Assembly: GCA_937900255.1 (NCBI GenBank)
Contig: CALCDZ010000004.1
Span: 20,857 to 84,856, forward strand
DNA from: an uncultured bacterium
Lineage (GTDB): Bacteria; Patescibacteriota; Patescibacteriia; SG8-24; DYFX01
Direction of reading: 5' to 3'
DNA length: 64,000 nucleotides
Shown: piece by piece, positions 6,379-60,728 of the stretch
Layout of the letters: the number at the start of each line of letters is the position of its first letter
Position numbering within the stretch: position 1 is the first letter of the stretch
Translations under genes and position numbers: made by a program
Notes under the pieces: model-generated
Told to the model about the DNA's origin: nothing
The model's database searches: none
The model's input: only the letters and a program-made list of their open reading frames with translations

Positions 6379-6564
6379 TTACGCGACGGCTTTTTCTTTC
6401 GGGGCCAGGGTCCGGATGCAGCGGGTGCAAAGCTTGAGCTTCACGCCGTTCACCGTCTTCGTCTGGAGGTTCACCAGGCGGCGGACTTTGGTCGCGATTT
6501 TGGAGTGGGAGCGGGTGTTCCCGGAGAGGGGACCGCGCTCGCACGCGTCACAGCGGCGGGCCAT
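6379..6564 (-). CDS. rpmB: 50S ribosomal protein L28
   Basis: MARRCDACERGPLSGNTRSHSKIATKVRRLVNLQ..., the L28 signature with SGNxxSH. Start chosen at the second Met of the track ORF. Confidence 0.85.
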   Translation of the reverse strand: MARRCDACERGPLSGNTRSHSKIATKVRRLVNLQTKTVNGVKLKLCTRCIRTLAPKEKAVA

Positions 6565-6600
6565 AGATGCGGGGAAAATCTTTACGTGGGAGGAGCGTAC

Positions 6601-7288
6601 CATGCCTTTCCAGGCTTGGCAAGAGTGTGTATCCTTTCCTCATATGCTCGGCTCCCTTTTCTCCAATCCGATCGAAGGCGTCGCTTGGATCGTGGCGTTC
6701 CTGGCCGCTTTGACGTTCCATGAGTTCAGCCACGGCCTCGCCGCCAAGCTGCAGGGCGACGACACGGCCGAACGGGCCGGGCGCCTCACGCTCAATCCGC
6801 TTTCGCATATCGACCCGATCGGCTTCCTGCTCGTGCTCGTGGCCGGTTTCGGCTGGGCCAAACCGGTGCCGTATAACCCCTACAACCTCCGCAACCAGAA
6901 GTGGGGACCGGTCATCGTCGCTGCGGCGGGGCCTTTGGCCAACCTCCTTCTCTTCGTGATCTCCGGCCTGACGTACCGGGGGCTCGTGGCCGCCGGAGTG
7001 CCGCTTTCGGGCAGTGCGCTCGGGGCGTTCCTCGGTGCCTTGATGGGCGTGAACGTCGTCCTCTTCGCCTTCAACCTCATCCCGTTCCCGCCGCTCGACG
7101 GCTCGAAGTTCCTGCTCCTCGCCCTCCAGCATCCCAAGTACGCCCGCGCCCGCTGGTGGATCGAGACGCGCGGCCCGATGGCGCTCATGCTGCTGGTCAT
7201 CGGTGATTCGTTCCTGCTGAACGGCCTCATCTTCGGCACGCTCATCGACCTCATTTCCGGGTTGGCGTTCAGGCTGATCGGGCTTTGA
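6601..7288 (+). CDS. site-2-protease family zinc metalloprotease (peptidase M50), no PDZ domain
   Basis: HEFSH (HExxH) in TM helix 1 and NLIPFPPLDG (LDG motif) in a later TM; multi-pass. The part of the track ORF upstream of 6601 overlaps rpmB antisense and is rejected. Confidence 0.75.
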
Positions 7289-10599: not shown

Positions 10600-11211
10600 A
10601 TGGATCCGCAAATGGAATTGGTGGTGTGGGTGCTCGCGATCGCGGTTCTTGTCTCGGTGGCGATATTCCTGGGCATGTGGCTCAGGGACCGTCGTCGCGA
10701 GCGTCGAGAGGCTCGCGTTCAGCTGCGGTCCGATGTGCACCGCGTGCGCCGCGTGCCGTCCGTCTCGGAGATCGATCGCATCCGTCGCGATTGCGGATAT
10801 CACGCCATCCCATACGAGGACATCGGCACGCACGATGCCGAACTTTCGGAGCTCACGTGCCGAGCGTATCTGGATGATGCCAGAGGTCTACGGGCCTCCC
10901 TCTGCCGGGATGCATGCGGCCACCTGAGGAAGCTGGATGGCATCATCAGATGCCTGGAGGGCGCGAACCAGAAACATCAGTGGTCCGCCATCGGGACGAC
11001 CTGGGAAGATCTGCGCGACCTCACCAGGAAGGGGATGATGGGGGAGGCGCGGAAGATCTACGAGAACGGCGTCAAGCTGCAGGACCGCGGATGGAATCGG
11101 CAGGAGAACATGCGTGCCATCGAAGCTCTTCTGATTTACGCCAACGGCACGCTTCGGGAGCTCGACCCTGAGCTCACCGACGCGGCCTGGACCGCGCTCA
11201 AGGAGGCCTGA
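10600..11211 (+). CDS. hypothetical protein, N-terminal single TM helix
   Basis: ORF with good RBS; N-terminal hydrophobic helix then Arg-rich stretch; no recognisable catalytic motif. Position between fusA and tuf is atypical. Confidence 0.5.
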   Translation: MDPQMELVVWVLAIAVLVSVAIFLGMWLRDRRRERREARVQLRSDVHRVRRVPSVSEIDRIRRDCGYHAIPYEDIGTHDAELSELTCRAYLDDARGLRASLCRDACGHLRKLDGIIRCLEGANQKHQWSAIGTTWEDLRDLTRKGMMGEARKIYENGVKLQDRGWNRQENMRAIEALLIYANGTLRELDPELTDAAWTALKEA

Positions 11212-22767: not shown

Positions 22768-24051
22768 ATGTGGGCCAAATTCTCCTTGCTCTGGAAACAG
22801 CACGATTTAAGGAACAGTATCCTTAAGGTACTGGGCATCCTGGTCGTCTTCCGCGTCGCCGCGCACATCCCGATCCCAGGCGTCGACATCGCCAACCTGA
22901 GGTCGTTCTTCCAGTCCAACCAGCTGTTGGGCCTGATGAACGTCTTCTCGGGAGGTACGCTCAACAACTTCTCCGTCGTCAGCCTGGGCGTCGGTCCGTA
23001 CATCACGGCCTCGATCATCCTCCAGCTCTTGGCGATGATCGTCCCGAGTCTTGAGGAACTGTCGAAGGACGGCGAACAGGGTCAGCGCAAGATCAACCAG
23101 TACACCCGCATCCTGGCCGTTCCGTTGGCTCTGCTGCAGGCGTACGGCATGATCAACCTCCTCAAGCAGTCCTCCGGCATCTTGCCGAACCTGAGCGTCT
23201 TCAGCCTGGCGACCACCATGCTGACGATGACGGCCGGCACCATCTTCCTGATGTGGCTGGGCGAACTGATCGACGAGCAGAAGATCGGCAACGGCATCTC
23301 GTTCCTGATCTTCGCGGGCATCGTCGCCCGCCTGCCGGATGCCGTCTCGCAGGCCATCCTGACCTACGACCCGACCAAGCTTGTGGCCTACGCCGCCTTC
23401 GCCCTGGTCGGCTTCGCCACCATCGCCGGCGTCGTGCTCATCACGGAGGCCCAGCGCAACATTCCGGTGACCTACGCCAAGCGCGTGGCCGGCACCAGCA
23501 CCACCGGCGGATCCAGCACGCATCTGCCGCTGCGCGTCAACATGGCCGGCGTGATCCCGATCATCTTCGCGATCTCCATCATCCTCTTCCCGCCGATGAT
23601 CGCGCAGTTCTTCGTCCACGCCAAGACGGCTTGGCTCGCCGCCGCGGCCGCCAAGACGATTACCCTGTTCCAGAACCAGCTGGTCTACGGCATCTCCTAC
23701 TTCGTGCTGGTCCTGGTCTTCACCTACTTCTACACGGCCGTCGTGTTCAAGCCGGAGCAGATCGCCGAGAACCTCCAGAAGCAGGGCGGCTACGTCCCGG
23801 GCATCCGTCCTGGCAAGCCGACGGCCGACTATCTGATGTATACCGTGAACCGCATCACCCTGGCCGGAGCCGTCTCGATCGCGATCATCGCGGTCCTGCC
23901 GCTCATCGTCCAGCAGTTCCTGACCGGTACCAAGAACCTGGTCGTCGGCGGCTCGTCGCTCCTCATCGTCGTCTCGGTCGTGCTGGAGATCGTCCGGCAG
24001 ATCGAATCCCAGATGACCATGCGCGAATACGACTACGACGCGGTGAAATAA
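22768..24051 (+). CDS. secY: preprotein translocase subunit SecY
   Basis: 427 aa, 10 TM segments, SecY signature (...[12 protein letters not shown]...). Confidence 0.95.
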
Positions 24052-24145
24052 GGAAACCTAAAAGGGCGGCCGAAAGGCCGTTCTTTCGGTTCTTGACACC
24101 CGTGGTTGCGTCCGTGGTAGGAGGCAGGGGTATACTCTTAACGAT

Positions 24146-24391
24146 ATGCCAATGCTCACCCAGGACGACCTTAAAGCCATCGGTCAGCTCGTCGATGAAA
24201 AGATGGACCAGAAGTTCTTGAAATTTGAGGCGTGCATCGTACCGGAGATCGTCAAACAGGTCGGGGAAAAGGTCGTGGCGGACGTGGGCGAGATGATCGA
24301 CGAGAACATCTTGCCGGAATTCGATCGCCTCGAAAATCGTCTCGTCACCAAGTCCTACCTCGACGATAAGCTCGCGGGCTACGTGAAGTAG
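24146..24391 (+). CDS. small acidic hypothetical protein (81 aa)
   Basis: ORF located between secY and the GxGD-like membrane protein; no TM segment; Asp/Glu-rich; no recognised motif. Confidence 0.4.
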   Translation: MPMLTQDDLKAIGQLVDEKMDQKFLKFEACIVPEIVKQVGEKVVADVGEMIDENILPEFDRLENRLVTKSYLDDKLAGYVK

Positions 24392-24400
24392 GTGTTTTGA

Positions 24401-25267
24401 ATGTCTGACCTTTCGCCGCACCGTCCCGCCATCGTGCTGCCGAAAGGGGAGCGGGTCTCGATTCTGGTCCATGGGCTGCTGATCTTCGGGGGCGTGGGTG
24501 CCATGGCGCTTGGCGCGACTTCGAAGACGGCGTCGTTGGGCGGCGCTGTCCTATCGCAGGCCGTCTCCGTGCCATACCTGCTGGCAGCATTCTTGCTGAT
24601 CGTGTCCATACCGTCCTTGGCGCTGAAAGTGTCCAGGAATCCCGCCGTGTTCAGGGGCCTGTTCGCGCTCCTCATTTTCATGGGGTCCTGGTCCATCGCA
24701 GGCACGTATCTGCCGCCCGCCCCTGCGCTCCTCGTCGCGGCGGCCATCACGCTGCTTCATGCGTTTTGGAAAACGGCCATGGCCGCGAATGCGTCCCTCG
24801 CGATCGGCACGGCAGGCATCGCGGCAGGTATCGCGAAGGTTTTTTCTCCGGACGCCCTGCTGTTCCTTTTGACGGCGCTCTCTTTTTACGATATCTTGGC
24901 GGTCTATCGGACCGGACATATGGTCAGGATGTTCCGGGAACTGCGTTCTCTCGGCGCGGTCCTCGCCTTCCTGCTCACGCCGCTGCGTTTTTCGGATCTG
25001 ACGACACCCGCAGCTTCGAGGCCTGAACGTCCCGGCATGCTGCTCGGCGTCGGCGACGTGTTCATGCCGGTCGCGCTGGCCTGCGCCGCGCTCCGTCAAG
25101 GCTTCCTGCCGGCCGTCGCCGCGGTTTCCGGTGCCGCGGCGGGGTTCGCCGCGACGTATCTGCTGTATCTCGCCCAACCGAAACGCGCGCCGATGCCCGC
25201 GTTGCCGCCCATCGCCCTCGGAGCGATCATCGCCTACGCCGTCTCACTCCTCATCCAGCACCCATGA
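24401..25267 (+). CDS. polytopic membrane protein with presenilin/signal-peptide-peptidase-like GxGD aspartyl-protease motifs (A22-like)
   Basis: About 9 predicted TM helices. LSFYDILAVY (YD inside a TM), then ~55 aa later LGVGDVFMP (GxGD inside a TM), then PMPALPPIA (PAL motif) before the last TM. Order and spacing match presenilin/SPP/archaeal PSH. Confidence 0.55.
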   Translation: MSDLSPHRPAIVLPKGERVSILVHGLLIFGGVGAMALGATSKTASLGGAVLSQAVSVPYLLAAFLLIVSIPSLALKVSRNPAVFRGLFALLIFMGSWSIAGTYLPPAPALLVAAAITLLHAFWKTAMAANASLAIGTAGIAAGIAKVFSPDALLFLLTALSFYDILAVYRTGHMVRMFRELRSLGAVLAFLLTPLRFSDLTTPAASRPERPGMLLGVGDVFMPVALACAALRQGFLPAVAAVSGAAAGFAATYLLYLAQPKRAPMPALPPIALGAIIAYAVSLLIQHP

Positions 25268-26013
25268 AGAAGATGAAAGTCGCCGTCATCGGCACCCTGG
25301 CTTCCGGCAAGGGCACGCAGTCGCACATCCTCTCGGTCCTGATGGGCGCGCCGGCCGTCTCGATCGGAGACCTGCTCCGGGATCTCCAAGGGGAAGATTC
25401 GGAGCGCGGGCGCTCCGCAAAGGTCGAGATGGCTAAAGGCGCATTCGTTCCGGACGGCGTCATCCTTCCGCTCGTCAAGGCTTGGATTTCCAAGCGTCCG
25501 AAAGGATGGATCGTCGACGGTTTTCCGCGTTCGATCGCGCAGGCTGATGCCTGCGCGCGGTTCTTCAAGCCGGATGCGGTCGTCTATCTCGAGATCCCGG
25601 ATGCGGAAGCGCTGCGGCGCAGCACGTACCGGCGCGTCTGCTCGAAGTGCAAGACCAACTATAATCTCGCCACCCAGCCGCCTCATGATCCGCAAGGACG
25701 TTGCGACGTCTGCGGCGGCACGCTCGTCCGCCGCGAGGATGACGCGCCTGAAATCGTCGAGCGACGCCTGCGCCATCATCATGAGGTCACCGAACCCCTC
25801 AAGCAGCGGTTCGCGAAGAGCCGGCGCCTCGTCCTGGTCGACGCCAGGGACGGCATCCCGGAGGTCGCCCGCGAAGTCCAGCGTCAGCTCGAATCGTTCA
25901 TGGCCGCGCGAGACCGCAAAAGGAGGATCGCCGCATGGTGCCTCTTCGCGACGGCAGCGGCTCTTTCCATCGCCGTCCTCTGCGTCTATACCGGATGGGT
26001 CCTGAATGGCTGA
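25264..26013 (+). CDS. adk: adenylate kinase (Zn-lid type) with C-terminal hydrophobic tail
   Basis: P-loop IGTLASGKGTQ, SIGDLLRD, VDGFPRSIAQAD, Cys4 lid (CSKC...CDVC). Final ~30 aa are hydrophobic (IAAWCLFATAAALSIAVLCVYTGWVL). The ATG overlaps the upstream stop. Confidence 0.85.
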   Translation: MKKMKVAVIGTLASGKGTQSHILSVLMGAPAVSIGDLLRDLQGEDSERGRSAKVEMAKGAFVPDGVILPLVKAWISKRPKGWIVDGFPRSIAQADACARFFKPDAVVYLEIPDAEALRRSTYRRVCSKCKTNYNLATQPPHDPQGRCDVCGGTLVRREDDAPEIVERRLRHHHEVTEPLKQRFAKSRRLVLVDARDGIPEVAREVQRQLESFMAARDRKRRIAAWCLFATAAALSIAVLCVYTGWVLNG

Positions 26014-26052: not shown

Positions 26053-26829
26053 ATGGCCATCGTGATTTACGGAGAAAAAGAGATCGTATCCCTCCGCCAA
26101 GGCGGCAAGCTCCTTGCGGAGATTTTGGGCGAACTGGCACGGATGACCGCTCCCGGAGTCTCGACCGCCAACCTCGATGCGCACGCGGAAAAGCGCATGC
26201 GCGACGCGGGTGGGGCGCCGTCTTTCAAGGGGTACAAGGCCGGCGGCAACGTGCCTTTCAACGGCACGGTCTGCACGTCCATCAATCATGAAGTGGTCCA
26301 TGCGCCTCCGTACCCAGGTCGCACCCTCAAGGAAGGGGACATCATCTCCCTCGATATCGGCATGCGCTACGAGGGCCTTTGCACGGACATGGCCGTCACG
26401 GTACCGGTCGGCAAGGTGCCGGAAAAGGCGCTCAGGCTCATCCGGGTCACGCGCGATTCGCTCTTGGCGGGCGTCGAGAACGTCCGACCTGGCGGCAAGA
26501 TCAGGAATATCGGCAAGGCGGTCCAAGCGGTCGTGGAGAGCGGCGGTTTCGGCGTCGTGCGCGCCCTGGTGGGTCACGGCGTCGGTCATGCCGTCCACGA
26601 GGATCCTCAGGTCCCGAACTTCGACGATCCCGATTCCCCGAAAGTCGTCATGAAGAAGGGGATGGTCTTGGCCATCGAGCCGATGGTCACCGAGGGATCG
26701 TGGGAGGTGGAAATGGCTCGGGACCAATGGACCATCTTCACCCAGGACCGCAGGCTCGCCGCCCACTGGGAAGTGACGGTCGCGGTGACGGAAGACGGCT
26801 ACGAGATCCTGACGCCCTTGCCGGTGTGA
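26053..26829 (+). CDS. map: methionine aminopeptidase type I
   Basis: 258 aa pita-bread fold; metal ligands in the conserved positions (D...D...H...E...E pattern). Confidence 0.9.
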   Translation: MAIVIYGEKEIVSLRQGGKLLAEILGELARMTAPGVSTANLDAHAEKRMRDAGGAPSFKGYKAGGNVPFNGTVCTSINHEVVHAPPYPGRTLKEGDIISLDIGMRYEGLCTDMAVTVPVGKVPEKALRLIRVTRDSLLAGVENVRPGGKIRNIGKAVQAVVESGGFGVVRALVGHGVGHAVHEDPQVPNFDDPDSPKVVMKKGMVLAIEPMVTEGSWEVEMARDQWTIFTQDRRLAAHWEVTVAVTEDGYEILTPLPV

Positions 26830-58949: not shown

Positions 58950-60728
58950 ATGCTTACAGGAAGGAAGCCATGCTCCAGACCGCTCGCAAGAGCCGCCTTC
59001 ACGGCCGCCTGTTTCGTGTTGGCGGTTTTTGCGTCTCTGGGAGCGGCGCATGCGGCGCATGCCCAGGGCGTGACGTCCAACGAAGTGCTGCCGACCGAAG
59101 TCGGTGCGGCCATTGGCACGGGCAGCGGCGATATCCGCATCACGATCGCGCGTATCGTCCGCGCCGCGCTCGGTCTCTTGGGGACCGTCGCCCTGCTGCT
59201 CGTCCTGTATGCCGGCTTCCTCTGGATGACGGCTTCGGGGGATGAGGACAAGATCGCGCGGGCGAAGAATACGCTCGCCGGCGCGCTCGTCGGGCTGGCG
59301 ATCATCCTGTCGGCGTTCGGCATCACGTCGCTCATCATCAGCCGCCTGCTCGGCGCAAGCGAAGGCGGGGGACCGGGCACGATCGGAGGGTCCGGTGCCA
59401 TCGATTCCGCCTGCATCGGCCTGTCCGCGACTTGCTCGGCCGGCGCGCTCGGCAACGGCATCGTCGAAAGCCATTACCCGTCCCGTAACGCGACCGGCGT
59501 CCCGCGCAATACCCGTATCGCCGTCACTTTCAAGGAGAAGATCGACCCCGCTTCTTTGGTGGTCGGAGGCGCCACGTCCACCGTCGCCATCCTGAAATCT
59601 TCCCAGGTCTCCGGTACCGACAACCGCTTCCTTCAGAAGTTCAGCCAGGCGCTGACGCCCGCCGCCATCGCAGTCGCCCCGTCCGCCGACGGCAGGACGT
59701 TCGTCTTCATGCAGAAGAACTGCCCGTCGGACTGTTTCGGAAGCCCGTCGGAAAACGTCTTCTATACCGTGGCGCTGCGGGGAGGTTCCGATGGCATCAA
59801 GAAAGCCGACGGCAGTCCCGCCTTCGGAGGGACGTTCAGTTCCGGGTATCTTTGGGAGTTCCAGGTCTCGACCAAGATCGATACGACCCCTCCGCACGTC
59901 AGCGCCGTCGTGCCTGCGTCCGGGGAGACGGGCGTGGCGCGCAACTCGATGGTGCAAGTCGATTTCGACGAGGCGATCGATCCGGTCAGCGCTGCGGCGG
60001 GCCTTTCGGTCGCGCGTTCGGGCGGCGTCGCCGTCCAGGGCGATGCGCGGATCGGGAACGCCTATCGTACGCTCGAATTCCGCACCAACGACCTTTGCGG
60101 CACCAACTCCTGCGGCGAGAAGGTCTACTGCCTGCCGGGGAACCAGTCGATCGCCGTCAGGGTCAAGGCGGACGGCCTGACCGCGACGCCGCCTCTCGGA
60201 CTGTATCCGCCGAGCGGCGTGACCGACATGGCCGGCAACTCGCTTGACGGCAACGGCAACGGCGCCGCGCAGGGCAGCCCGTCGGATGACTATCCGTTCT
60301 CGTTCACGACAGGCGACAAGATCGACCTGGTCCCGCCGAAAGTCGTCTCCCAGGACCCGGGCATCCTTCAGGGCGACGTCCCTCGCGACCTCCCGATGTC
60401 CGCCACCTTTTCCAAGCTGATGAGCGCGACCAGCATCACGACCGATACGATGCGCCTCATGGCGGTCCCCGGAGCCCCGACCAACTACGCGGTGACCAGC
60501 CAACCGGTCTCCTCGGTCACGGGCGGGGAACCCGACCAGACGAAAGCCGTGTTCCAGCACGATCTCCTCAGTACCGATCAGGCGTATGCGGCCGACCTGA
60601 CGTCCGGATTGCGCGACCTGCACCAGAACTGCTTCTTCCCGGGCGGAGGGCAGACCGTCTGCACCGGCAGCGAACCGTATTGCTGCAACGGCCAGCCTTC
60701 GACGACCGCCTGCGGCTTCCTTCCCTAG
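58950..60728 (+). CDS. secreted/membrane-anchored large protein: signal peptide, VirB2/T4SS-pilin-like two-helix domain, Ig-like region, Cys-rich C-terminus
   Basis: Signal peptide ending AHAAHA|QG. Two hydrophobic helices in pilin-like arrangement (IVRAALGLLGTVALLLVLYAGFLWMTASGDEDKIARAKNTLAGALVGLAIILSAF). Ig-like ectodomain; terminal QNCFFPGGGQTVCTGSEPYCCNGQPSTTACGFLP. Confidence 0.6.
   Translation: MLTGRKPCSRPLARAAFTAACFVLAVFASLGAAHAAHAQGVTSNEVLPTEVGAAIGTGSGDIRITIARIVRAALGLLGTVALLLVLYAGFLWMTASGDEDKIARAKNTLAGALVGLAIILSAFGITSLIISRLLGASEGGGPGTIGGSGAIDSACIGLSATCSAGALGNGIVESHYPSRNATGVPRNTRIAVTFKEKIDPASLVVGGATSTVAILKSSQVSGTDNRFLQKFSQALTPAAIAVAPSADGRTFVFMQKNCPSDCFGSPSENVFYTVALRGGSDGIKKADGSPAFGGTFSSGYLWEFQVSTKIDTTPPHVSAVVPASGETGVARNSMVQVDFDEAIDPVSAAAGLSVARSGGVAVQGDARIGNAYRTLEFRTNDLCGTNSCGEKVYCLPGNQSIAVRVKADGLTATPPLGLYPPSGVTDMAGNSLDGNGNGAAQGSPSDDYPFSFTTGDKIDLVPPKVVSQDPGILQGDVPRDLPMSATFSKLMSATSITTDTMRLMAVPGAPTNYAVTSQPVSSVTGGEPDQTKAVFQHDLLSTDQAYAADLTSGLRDLHQNCFFPGGGQTVCTGSEPYCCNGQPSTTACGFLP
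59064..59336 (+). repeat. direct repeat copy 1 (~270 bp, ~90% identical to copy 2; 78-bp identical core at 59186-59263)
   Basis: DNA encoding the pilin-like N-terminal domain. The core ACCGTCGCCCTGCTGCTCGTCCTGTATGCCGGCTTCCTCTGGATGACGGCTTCGGGGGATGAGGACAAGATCGCGCG recurs verbatim at 60947-61024. Confidence 0.8.

Follow-up and report, generated by a model that had tools for sequence, protein, structure and literature searches.

A PSH-type presenilin/SPP-family protease homologue encoded between secY and adk in a patescibacterium

The subject of this study is ORF288, an open reading frame (ORF) encoding 288 amino acids at positions 24401-25267 of a stretch of 64,000 nucleotides (nt) from contig CALCDZ010000004.1 of an uncultured patescibacterium; this whole stretch is referred to as the window. 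ORF288 belongs to the presenilin/signal-peptide peptidase (SPP) family A22 and, within it, to the branch of the archaeal presenilin homologue (PSH), a name used below for the corresponding gene at every locus. The evidence taken together is best explained by ORF288 being a functional, stand-alone intramembrane aspartyl protease of the PSH type in Patescibacteria (Candidate Phyla Radiation, CPR), inserted in the presenilin orientation and forming part of its own transcription unit, an explanation that we consider probable. ORF288 adds to a known and annotated family and is found in a lineage-specific, conserved gene arrangement.

Family membership, predicted fold and orientation

A preliminary description of the locus had read ORF288 as a presenilin/SPP-type GxGD protease homologue carrying the YD, GxGD and PAL motifs of family A22 in the right order and spacing, and this core reading is supported by profile matches, helix positions, structural superposition, conserved aspartates and synteny. 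The motifs lie in LSFYDILAVY (residues 160-169; Y163, D164), LGVGDVFMP (215-223; GVGD 216-219, D219) and PMPALPPIA (264-272; PALPP 266-270), with 55 residues between YD and GxGD and 47 between GxGD and PAL. When ORF288 was compared with the Pfam families, the model PF06550 ("SPP, presenilin aspartyl protease") matched above its gathering threshold (E 8.6e-11; 42.3 bits against 23.9) over profile positions 101-280 of 283. The two other A22 models matched below their cut-offs: PF04258 (A22B, eukaryotic SPP/SPPL) with 18.9 bits (E 0.0013; cut-off 23.3), and PF01080 (A22A, presenilin proper) with 15.2 bits (cut-off 34.3), the latter over the C-terminal part alone. The NCBIfam model of archaeal PSH, NF041679, aligns with ORF288 from end to end (46.8 bits) and does not reach its equivalog cut-off of 125 bits. 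Among PDB sequences, the sole phmmer match was Methanoculleus PSH (4hyc, E 7.9e-5), aligned in register at all three motifs (YD with YD, GVGD with GMGD, PALPP with AGLPP).

Conservation follows the same pattern. Y163, D164, G216, G218, D219 and the PALPP motif are invariant in 21 of 21 homologues of 28-62% identity, and across 85 sequences (the window plus the fetched loci) YD and GxGD, and with them both catalytic aspartates, are kept without exception, as are L268 and P269; position 266 is P or A and position 267 is A or G. A chance match to the motifs is ruled out by the PF06550 score, the alignment in register with PSH, the fold matches described next and the 85/85 conservation.

The AlphaFold2 model of ORF288, built with 21 homologues (pLDDT 84, pTM 0.84), contains nine long helices, in line with the approximately nine transmembrane (TM) helices claimed earlier. 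D164 lies within helix 150-171 (TM6), D219 at the start of helix 217-233 (TM7) and PALPP just ahead of helix 268-286 (TM9), so that both aspartates are placed inside successive TM helices. A Foldseek comparison of the model with the PDB, corresponding to the superposition proposed in the preliminary description, placed PSH, SPPL2a or presenilin-1 (PS1) in each of the 23 top positions (TM-scores 0.6-0.74), below which the score fell steeply. The model also includes short beta-strands at residues 189-192 and 213-216, just ahead of GxGD; PS1 forms substrate-pairing strands ahead of the same motif.

Lysine and arginine residues are distributed unevenly in ORF288, with 15 in the N-terminus and odd-numbered loops and 3 in the even-numbered loops, and the same bias is found in all 21 homologues (11-16 in odd against 1-3 in even loops). 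This bias predicts a cytoplasmic N-terminus and TM6-7 loop and an external C-terminus, that is, the orientation of presenilin. The topology of SPP is opposite to that of presenilin, a difference tied to their type II (SPP) and type I (presenilin) substrates (PMC2947513). Because signal peptides are N-in/C-out, they are not the predicted substrates of such an enzyme, and N-out/C-in stubs would fit better.

Of the characterised systems, PSH/MCMJR1 of Methanoculleus marisnigri (PDB 4hyc, 4hyg, 4y6k; PF06550; NF041679), for which Asp-dependent intramembrane proteolysis has been demonstrated (PMC2947513), is the best match in both sequence and structure. The two proteins are alike in length (301 and 288 amino acids), in the nine-TM fold with YD in TM6, GxGD in TM7 and (P/A)(A/G)LPP ahead of TM9, and in standing alone, with no nicastrin, APH-1 or PEN-2 partner apparent; indeed, no gamma-secretase partner genes were seen in the PSH neighbourhood of the window or of the syntenic loci. 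ORF288 differs in being bacterial, in its identity of about 21%, in falling under the NF041679 cut-off, and in its position between secY and a tail-anchored adk. Eukaryotic SPP and SPPL2a (A22B; PDB 9k92, 9k93) share the fold and the catalytic motifs, whereas ORF288 falls under the PF04258 cut-off, has a predicted orientation reversed relative to SPP, and lacks the PA domain and the extra N-terminal regions of SPPL2a. Presenilin-1 (gamma-secretase; A22A; PDB 6idf, 6iyc) is similar in fold (TM-score 0.62-0.68) and in the predicted N-in/C-out topology with a cytoplasmic TM6-7 loop, but ORF288 has neither partner subunits nor the long autoproteolytic loop, and its PF01080 match is below the cut-off. 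RseP/RasP (M50) and SppA (S49) may share with it the job of removing TM remnants, and an M50 gene is present in the window; however, these metallo- and serine enzymes are unrelated to ORF288 in fold and catalytic mechanism.

Distribution and conservation of the secY-PSH-adk arrangement

A word-indexed search retrieved 42 close clusters, all carrying PF06550; one bears the NCBI name [quoted passage not shown] and several the JGI name "presenilin-like A22 family membrane protease". The identification of ORF288 is thus not new, because these public pipelines already name such proteins. Among 1.84 billion cluster representatives, a profile search recognised 1,613 relatives at E<=1e-3, of which 271 reached E<=1e-30; a narrow pattern scan, in which each GTDB species was represented by one genome, gave 130, and 80 of these were retained for comparison. 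The retained sequences come from Patescibacteria (Paceibacter, Minisyncoccota, Yanofsky-, Nealson-, Buchanan- and Uhrbacteria) and from DPANN archaea (Woese-, Pace- and Undinarchaeota). The rarity in bacteria that had been claimed for these proteases holds for bacteria overall but not for Patescibacteria, with 130 GTDB species in a narrow scan and names already in use at NCBI and JGI: the family is ordinary there and also occurs in DPANN archaea, and PSH is a housekeeping-type gene spread over both groups. No paper discussing bacterial PSH members was found in a literature search, outside which one survey fell (Raut et al., 2021).

The DPANN homologues at four loci of Woese-, Pace- and Undinarchaeota (L021, L022, L024, L028; related loci are numbered with the prefix L) are 29-33% identical to ORF288, as close as most patescibacterial ones, and their neighbours include RtcB, archease, MCM and DUF763 genes. 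In a neighbour-joining tree, the DPANN sequences lie nested within the bacterial set, which hints at gene sharing between CPR and DPANN. Many records of metagenome-assembled genomes titled "uncultured Gammaproteobacteria" or "uncultured Candidatus Saccharibacteria" (L009, L011-L014, L016, L017 and others) are clearly close relatives of the window; the SecY of L009 is 90% identical to that of the window, and such record titles look unreliable.

The features of the locus are as follows, all on the + strand of the window.

22768-24051, + strand: secY, final gene of the spc (ribosomal-protein) cluster; Pfam SecY E 7e-106, 79-90% identity to SecY of related loci.
24061-24094, + strand: intrinsic-terminator-like hairpin, AAAGGGCGGCC-GAAA-GGCCGTTCTTT followed by CGGTTCTT; from the RNA fold and equivalents after secY in relatives.
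24093-24145, + strand: conserved promoter-like 5' element of ORF81 (TTGACA ... TGGTAGGAGG ... GTATACTCTTAACGAT); from DNA identity across loci, the promoter role being putative.
24146-24391, + strand: ORF81, lineage-specific gene for a small, acidic, soluble coiled-coil protein of 81 amino acids; from composition, cluster conservation and the AlphaFold2 model.
24401-25267, + strand: ORF288, PSH-type presenilin/SPP-family (A22, PF06550) intramembrane aspartyl protease homologue of 288 amino acids with nine TM helices; from profile and PDB matches, fold and motif conservation.
25264-26013, + strand: adk with a predicted C-terminal tail anchor (about residues 223-245, window about 25930-25998); Pfam ADK (E 3e-27) and ADK_lid, C-terminal hydropathy peak 2.24.
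26053-26829, + strand: map (methionine aminopeptidase), next in the PSH-adk-map-ruvX-recO run; Pfam Peptidase_M24 E 2.8e-45.

The order secY, ORF81, ORF288, adk, map and the junctions between the first four genes (94 bp for secY/ORF81, 9 bp for ORF81/ORF288 and -4 bp for ORF288/adk, with a shared ATGA) agree at every coordinate of the ORF map with the co-directional layout reported in the preliminary description. The region and its flanks have the same GC content, and a recent horizontal insertion was rejected on this absence of a GC anomaly together with the old synteny.

The arrangement secY-(variable)-PSH-adk-map-ruvX-recO is kept in relatives with 47-54% PSH identity, and a 37%-identity relative retains secY-PSH-adk-map-ruvX up to the end of its contig; in a 27%-identity relative, PSH lies elsewhere and adjoins a DsbA-like gene. 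The neighbourhood was further surveyed by tblastn over 86 loci, with secY and adk sought within about 4 kb of PSH. In the close clade, adk directly follows PSH in all 12 GTDB loci and secY precedes it wherever the contig reaches that far. Among distant loci, secY-PSH-adk occurs in L005, L027, L075 and L086 alone, so that the placement of PSH between secY and adk, which the preliminary description had left to be checked, is a property of the close clade and these four loci. About 65 of the 86 loci have neither gene within that distance. A Pfam census of immediate neighbours at the loci away from secY gave varied housekeeping genes (NIF3 13, radical SAM/ELP3-like 12, beta-CASP RNase 9, RtcB/archease, MetK) and no secretion partner; a conserved functional neighbour at these loci was accordingly rejected. 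All secY-linked PSH sequences form one clade in the neighbour-joining tree, which is consistent with a single ancient move of PSH beside secY that has been kept since. The ATGA overlap of the PSH stop and adk start codons is found in the window and throughout the close clade, and PSH-adk with its 4-bp overlap is a robust unit.

In the window and in all 14 close-clade loci examined, adenylate kinase (Adk) is about 250 amino acids long and ends in a basic patch, a hydrophobic helix of about 22 residues and a short conserved terminus (TGYILNS or similar). This C-terminal extension is a predicted tail anchor, recorded in L001, L003, L004, L007-L009, L011-L013 and L015-L018. The deeper secY-linked loci L005, L027, L075 and L086 encode an ordinary Adk of about 212-217 amino acids with no tail, and because they keep PSH next to adk, the PSH-adk linkage is older than the tail. 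We know of no other membrane-tethered bacterial Adk, and it is unusual for such an enzyme to be coupled in translation to an intramembrane protease.

The secY-ORF81 spacer, ORF81 and other genes of the window

The 94-nt spacer between secY and ORF81 folds as RNA with -36.3 kcal/mol (z -2.4) and contains the hairpin AAAGGGCGGCC-GAAA-GGCCGUUCUUU, behind which lies a U-rich stretch. At the same position after secY, hairpins that differ in their stems but are likewise bordered by an A-run and a T-run are found in L001, L004, L007, L008, L009, L011, L012, L016, L018 and L027, that of L004 being a textbook example (AAAACCCGCCC-TCAT-GGGCGGGTTTTT). The approximately 55 nt that lead up to the ORF81 start (TTGACA..GGTTGC..TGNTAGGAG..GTATACTCYTAACG(A)TATG) are near-identical in DNA across loci, namely in L001, L003, L008, L012, L018 and L089, where the ORF81 proteins are mostly 41-48% identical (79% in L018). 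This promoter-like element occurs once in the window. In L004, where ORF81 is missing, a GGTACACT..ACGTATG version stands immediately ahead of PSH; in most hairpin loci the TTGACA box follows the secY hairpin directly, L004 having the GGTACACT version instead. Rfam gave no match for the spacer or the element, and a known RNA element was rejected on these grounds. We infer that the spacer would contain a terminator or attenuator and, downstream of it, a promoter. The co-transcription of all these genes within the spc operon, as proposed in the preliminary description, is doubtful in view of the terminator-like hairpin and the conserved element, neither of which was called by consensus scans.

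ORF81 is a real conserved gene, whose family comprises 15 clusters among 5.8 billion proteins. These clusters share the N-terminus MxxLTQDDLKAIG and the C-terminus ENRLVTKSYLDDKLAxYV around a repetitive middle of variable length. The 81-residue product has a pI of 4.5 and lacks any hydrophobic segment, in agreement with the preliminary description, which called it acidic and free of TM segments; its AlphaFold2 model is one long helix (residues 6-65). ORF81 had no match in Pfam, NCBIfam or PADLOC, and its best PHROG, phrog_747, was below threshold (E 0.052). Because neither ORF81 nor ORF288 matched PADLOC or reached significance against PHROG, an origin of these genes in a defence system or phage was rejected.

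The suggestion that ORF81 might be a partner or substrate of ORF288 did not hold up. The gene is absent from the close loci L004, L007, L009, L011 and L016; in these, the secY-PSH gap holds other cargo in L007, L009, L011 and L016 and measures just 53 bp in L004. Conversely, a copy with 70% identity is found between fusA and tuf (L087 4001-4297; L088 123-419), beside three antisense genes, so that the family occupies at least two junctions of the ribosomal super-operon. ORF81 has no fixed link to PSH and is unlikely to be an obligate partner or substrate: five close loci lack it, it has a fusA-tuf copy, and its product is a soluble coiled coil of one helix that contains no TM segment. Its behaviour is that of optional cargo where highly expressed genes adjoin, not that of a subunit. 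In the window, the fusA-tuf junction itself holds an inserted ORF of 203 amino acids (10600-11211, + strand) with a weak DUF4381 match.

The secY-PSH gap is a hot spot of variable cargo (L007 2373-4000; L011 2920-4000; L016 1634-2414; upstream of PSH in L001, L015, L089 and L091). The kinds of cargo are an antisense ImmA/IrrE-like (HEIGH) gene with a helix-turn-helix pair, a methyltransferase-like ORF, an antisense DUF3467 gene, a GrpB gene, or none (L004); in L001, L089 and L091, the antisense DUF3467 gene parts the small ORF from PSH. Deeper lineages carry in the gap another family of ORFs of about 80 amino acids (..EQIxKLTFxxxxLDQKQRExV..; L005 5748-5968, L027 3586-3825, L075 3628-3870), the L005 member of which appears frameshifted.

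Elsewhere in the window, a Peptidase_M50 (site-2 protease, S2P) gene at 6416-7288 (+ strand) lies just upstream of the rpsL-rpsG-fusA operon, as it does in L087, and is a second intramembrane protease gene abutting a ribosomal-protein operon. A 592-residue protein (58950-60728, + strand) combines an N-terminal T4SS_pilin (VirB2-like) domain with Big_5 Ig-like repeats. Pilin-domain proteins had been put forward, as a speculation, as substrates of ORF288, and nothing connects them to PSH. No convincing candidate substrate of the C-terminally anchored LPXTG type was found within the window.

Likely function and its significance

If ORF288 is the protease that it probably is, the enzyme would hydrolyse peptide bonds within single TM helices, its two aspartates activating water as in archaeal PSH. 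It would prefer type I (N-out/C-in) helices whose ectodomains are short, for example the membrane stubs that shedding or sorting leaves behind, over signal peptides. Transcription would probably start at a promoter just past the secY terminator, with some read-through possible, and the resulting ORF81-PSH-adk-map unit would be expressed at a housekeeping level. A general role in clearing or processing TM stubs is favoured over that of a dedicated signal-peptide peptidase.

Several points weigh against this explanation. The NF041679 score below the equivalog cut-off marks ORF288 as a divergent branch, a homologue and not an equivalog by the NCBI criterion. The orientation is predicted by the positive-inside rule and by nothing else, and for the bacterial members as a group activity, substrate and topology are predictions. 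In the spacer, a sigma-70 consensus scan gave no canonical site and a simple terminator scan no hairpin. The neighbour-joining tree is approximate and carries no support values. Finally, the lasting adjacency to secY over deep divergence could reflect a functional tie to secretion, to which the argument from orientation gives little weight.

Such a tie is the basis of the alternative that ORF288 serves the Sec pathway as a signal-peptide peptidase, clearing the N-in/C-out signal peptides left by signal peptidase I, like eukaryotic SPP. PSH stays beside secY in the entire clade, down to 33-37% protein identity, the top Pfam model bears the name of signal-peptide peptidase, and a possible signal-peptide peptidase role has been suggested for archaeal homologues (PMC8305020). 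Nevertheless, the predicted orientation is presenilin-like, the reverse of SPP, a conserved terminator separates secY from PSH, and at about 65 of 86 loci PSH lies elsewhere, beside NIF3, radical-SAM, beta-CASP, RtcB and other genes, with secretion genes absent nearby. In addition, the window encodes an M50/S2P protease, a family responsible for signal-peptide clearance in E. coli and B. subtilis. Dedicated signal-peptide removal is, on balance, unlikely.

A functional pair of PSH and the tail-anchored Adk, in which the protease frees or turns over Adk or both assemble near the translocon, might account for the ATGA overlap in the window and the whole close clade, and for the conserved basic patch, hydrophobic tail and TGYILNS end that other Adk proteins lack. 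Tail-anchored proteins are, moreover, substrates of eukaryotic SPP. However, a tail anchor is N-in/C-out, the wrong way round for an N-in enzyme of the presenilin type, and in L005, L027, L075 and L086 PSH adjoins an adk with no tail, the linkage being the older of the two; such a pairing is very doubtful. That ORF288 is a non-proteolytic membrane protein (a channel or scaffold) with a presenilin fold, or an unrelated polytopic protein with chance motifs, would accord with the low scores against curated models (42-47 bits) and the identity of about 21% to PSH, but is extremely improbable given the absolute conservation of the catalytic residues and PAL region among sequences otherwise 24-60% identical, full-length fold matches restricted to A22 enzymes, and motifs in register with PSH.

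A bolder proposal, which we regard as improbable, is that one lineage built PSH into a membrane-proximal housekeeping module together with the SecY translocon and the tail-anchored Adk, where the protease would have TM remnants from the translocon as its targets or would control Adk. From our own reading of the literature, we know of no natural substrate for any prokaryotic presenilin homologue. If the proposal is true, the module would provide the first physiological role and the first natural substrate for such a homologue, and genes shared between CPR and DPANN would likewise be indicated. The function of the Haloferax presenilin homologue is listed as "Unknown" (PMC9263693). The regular presence of the family in Patescibacteria, the long-kept slot between secY and an anchored adk and the presenilin-like predicted orientation narrow the search, easing both the hunt for native substrates and the choice of small stand-alone enzymes for work on the mechanism of gamma-secretase-type proteolysis.

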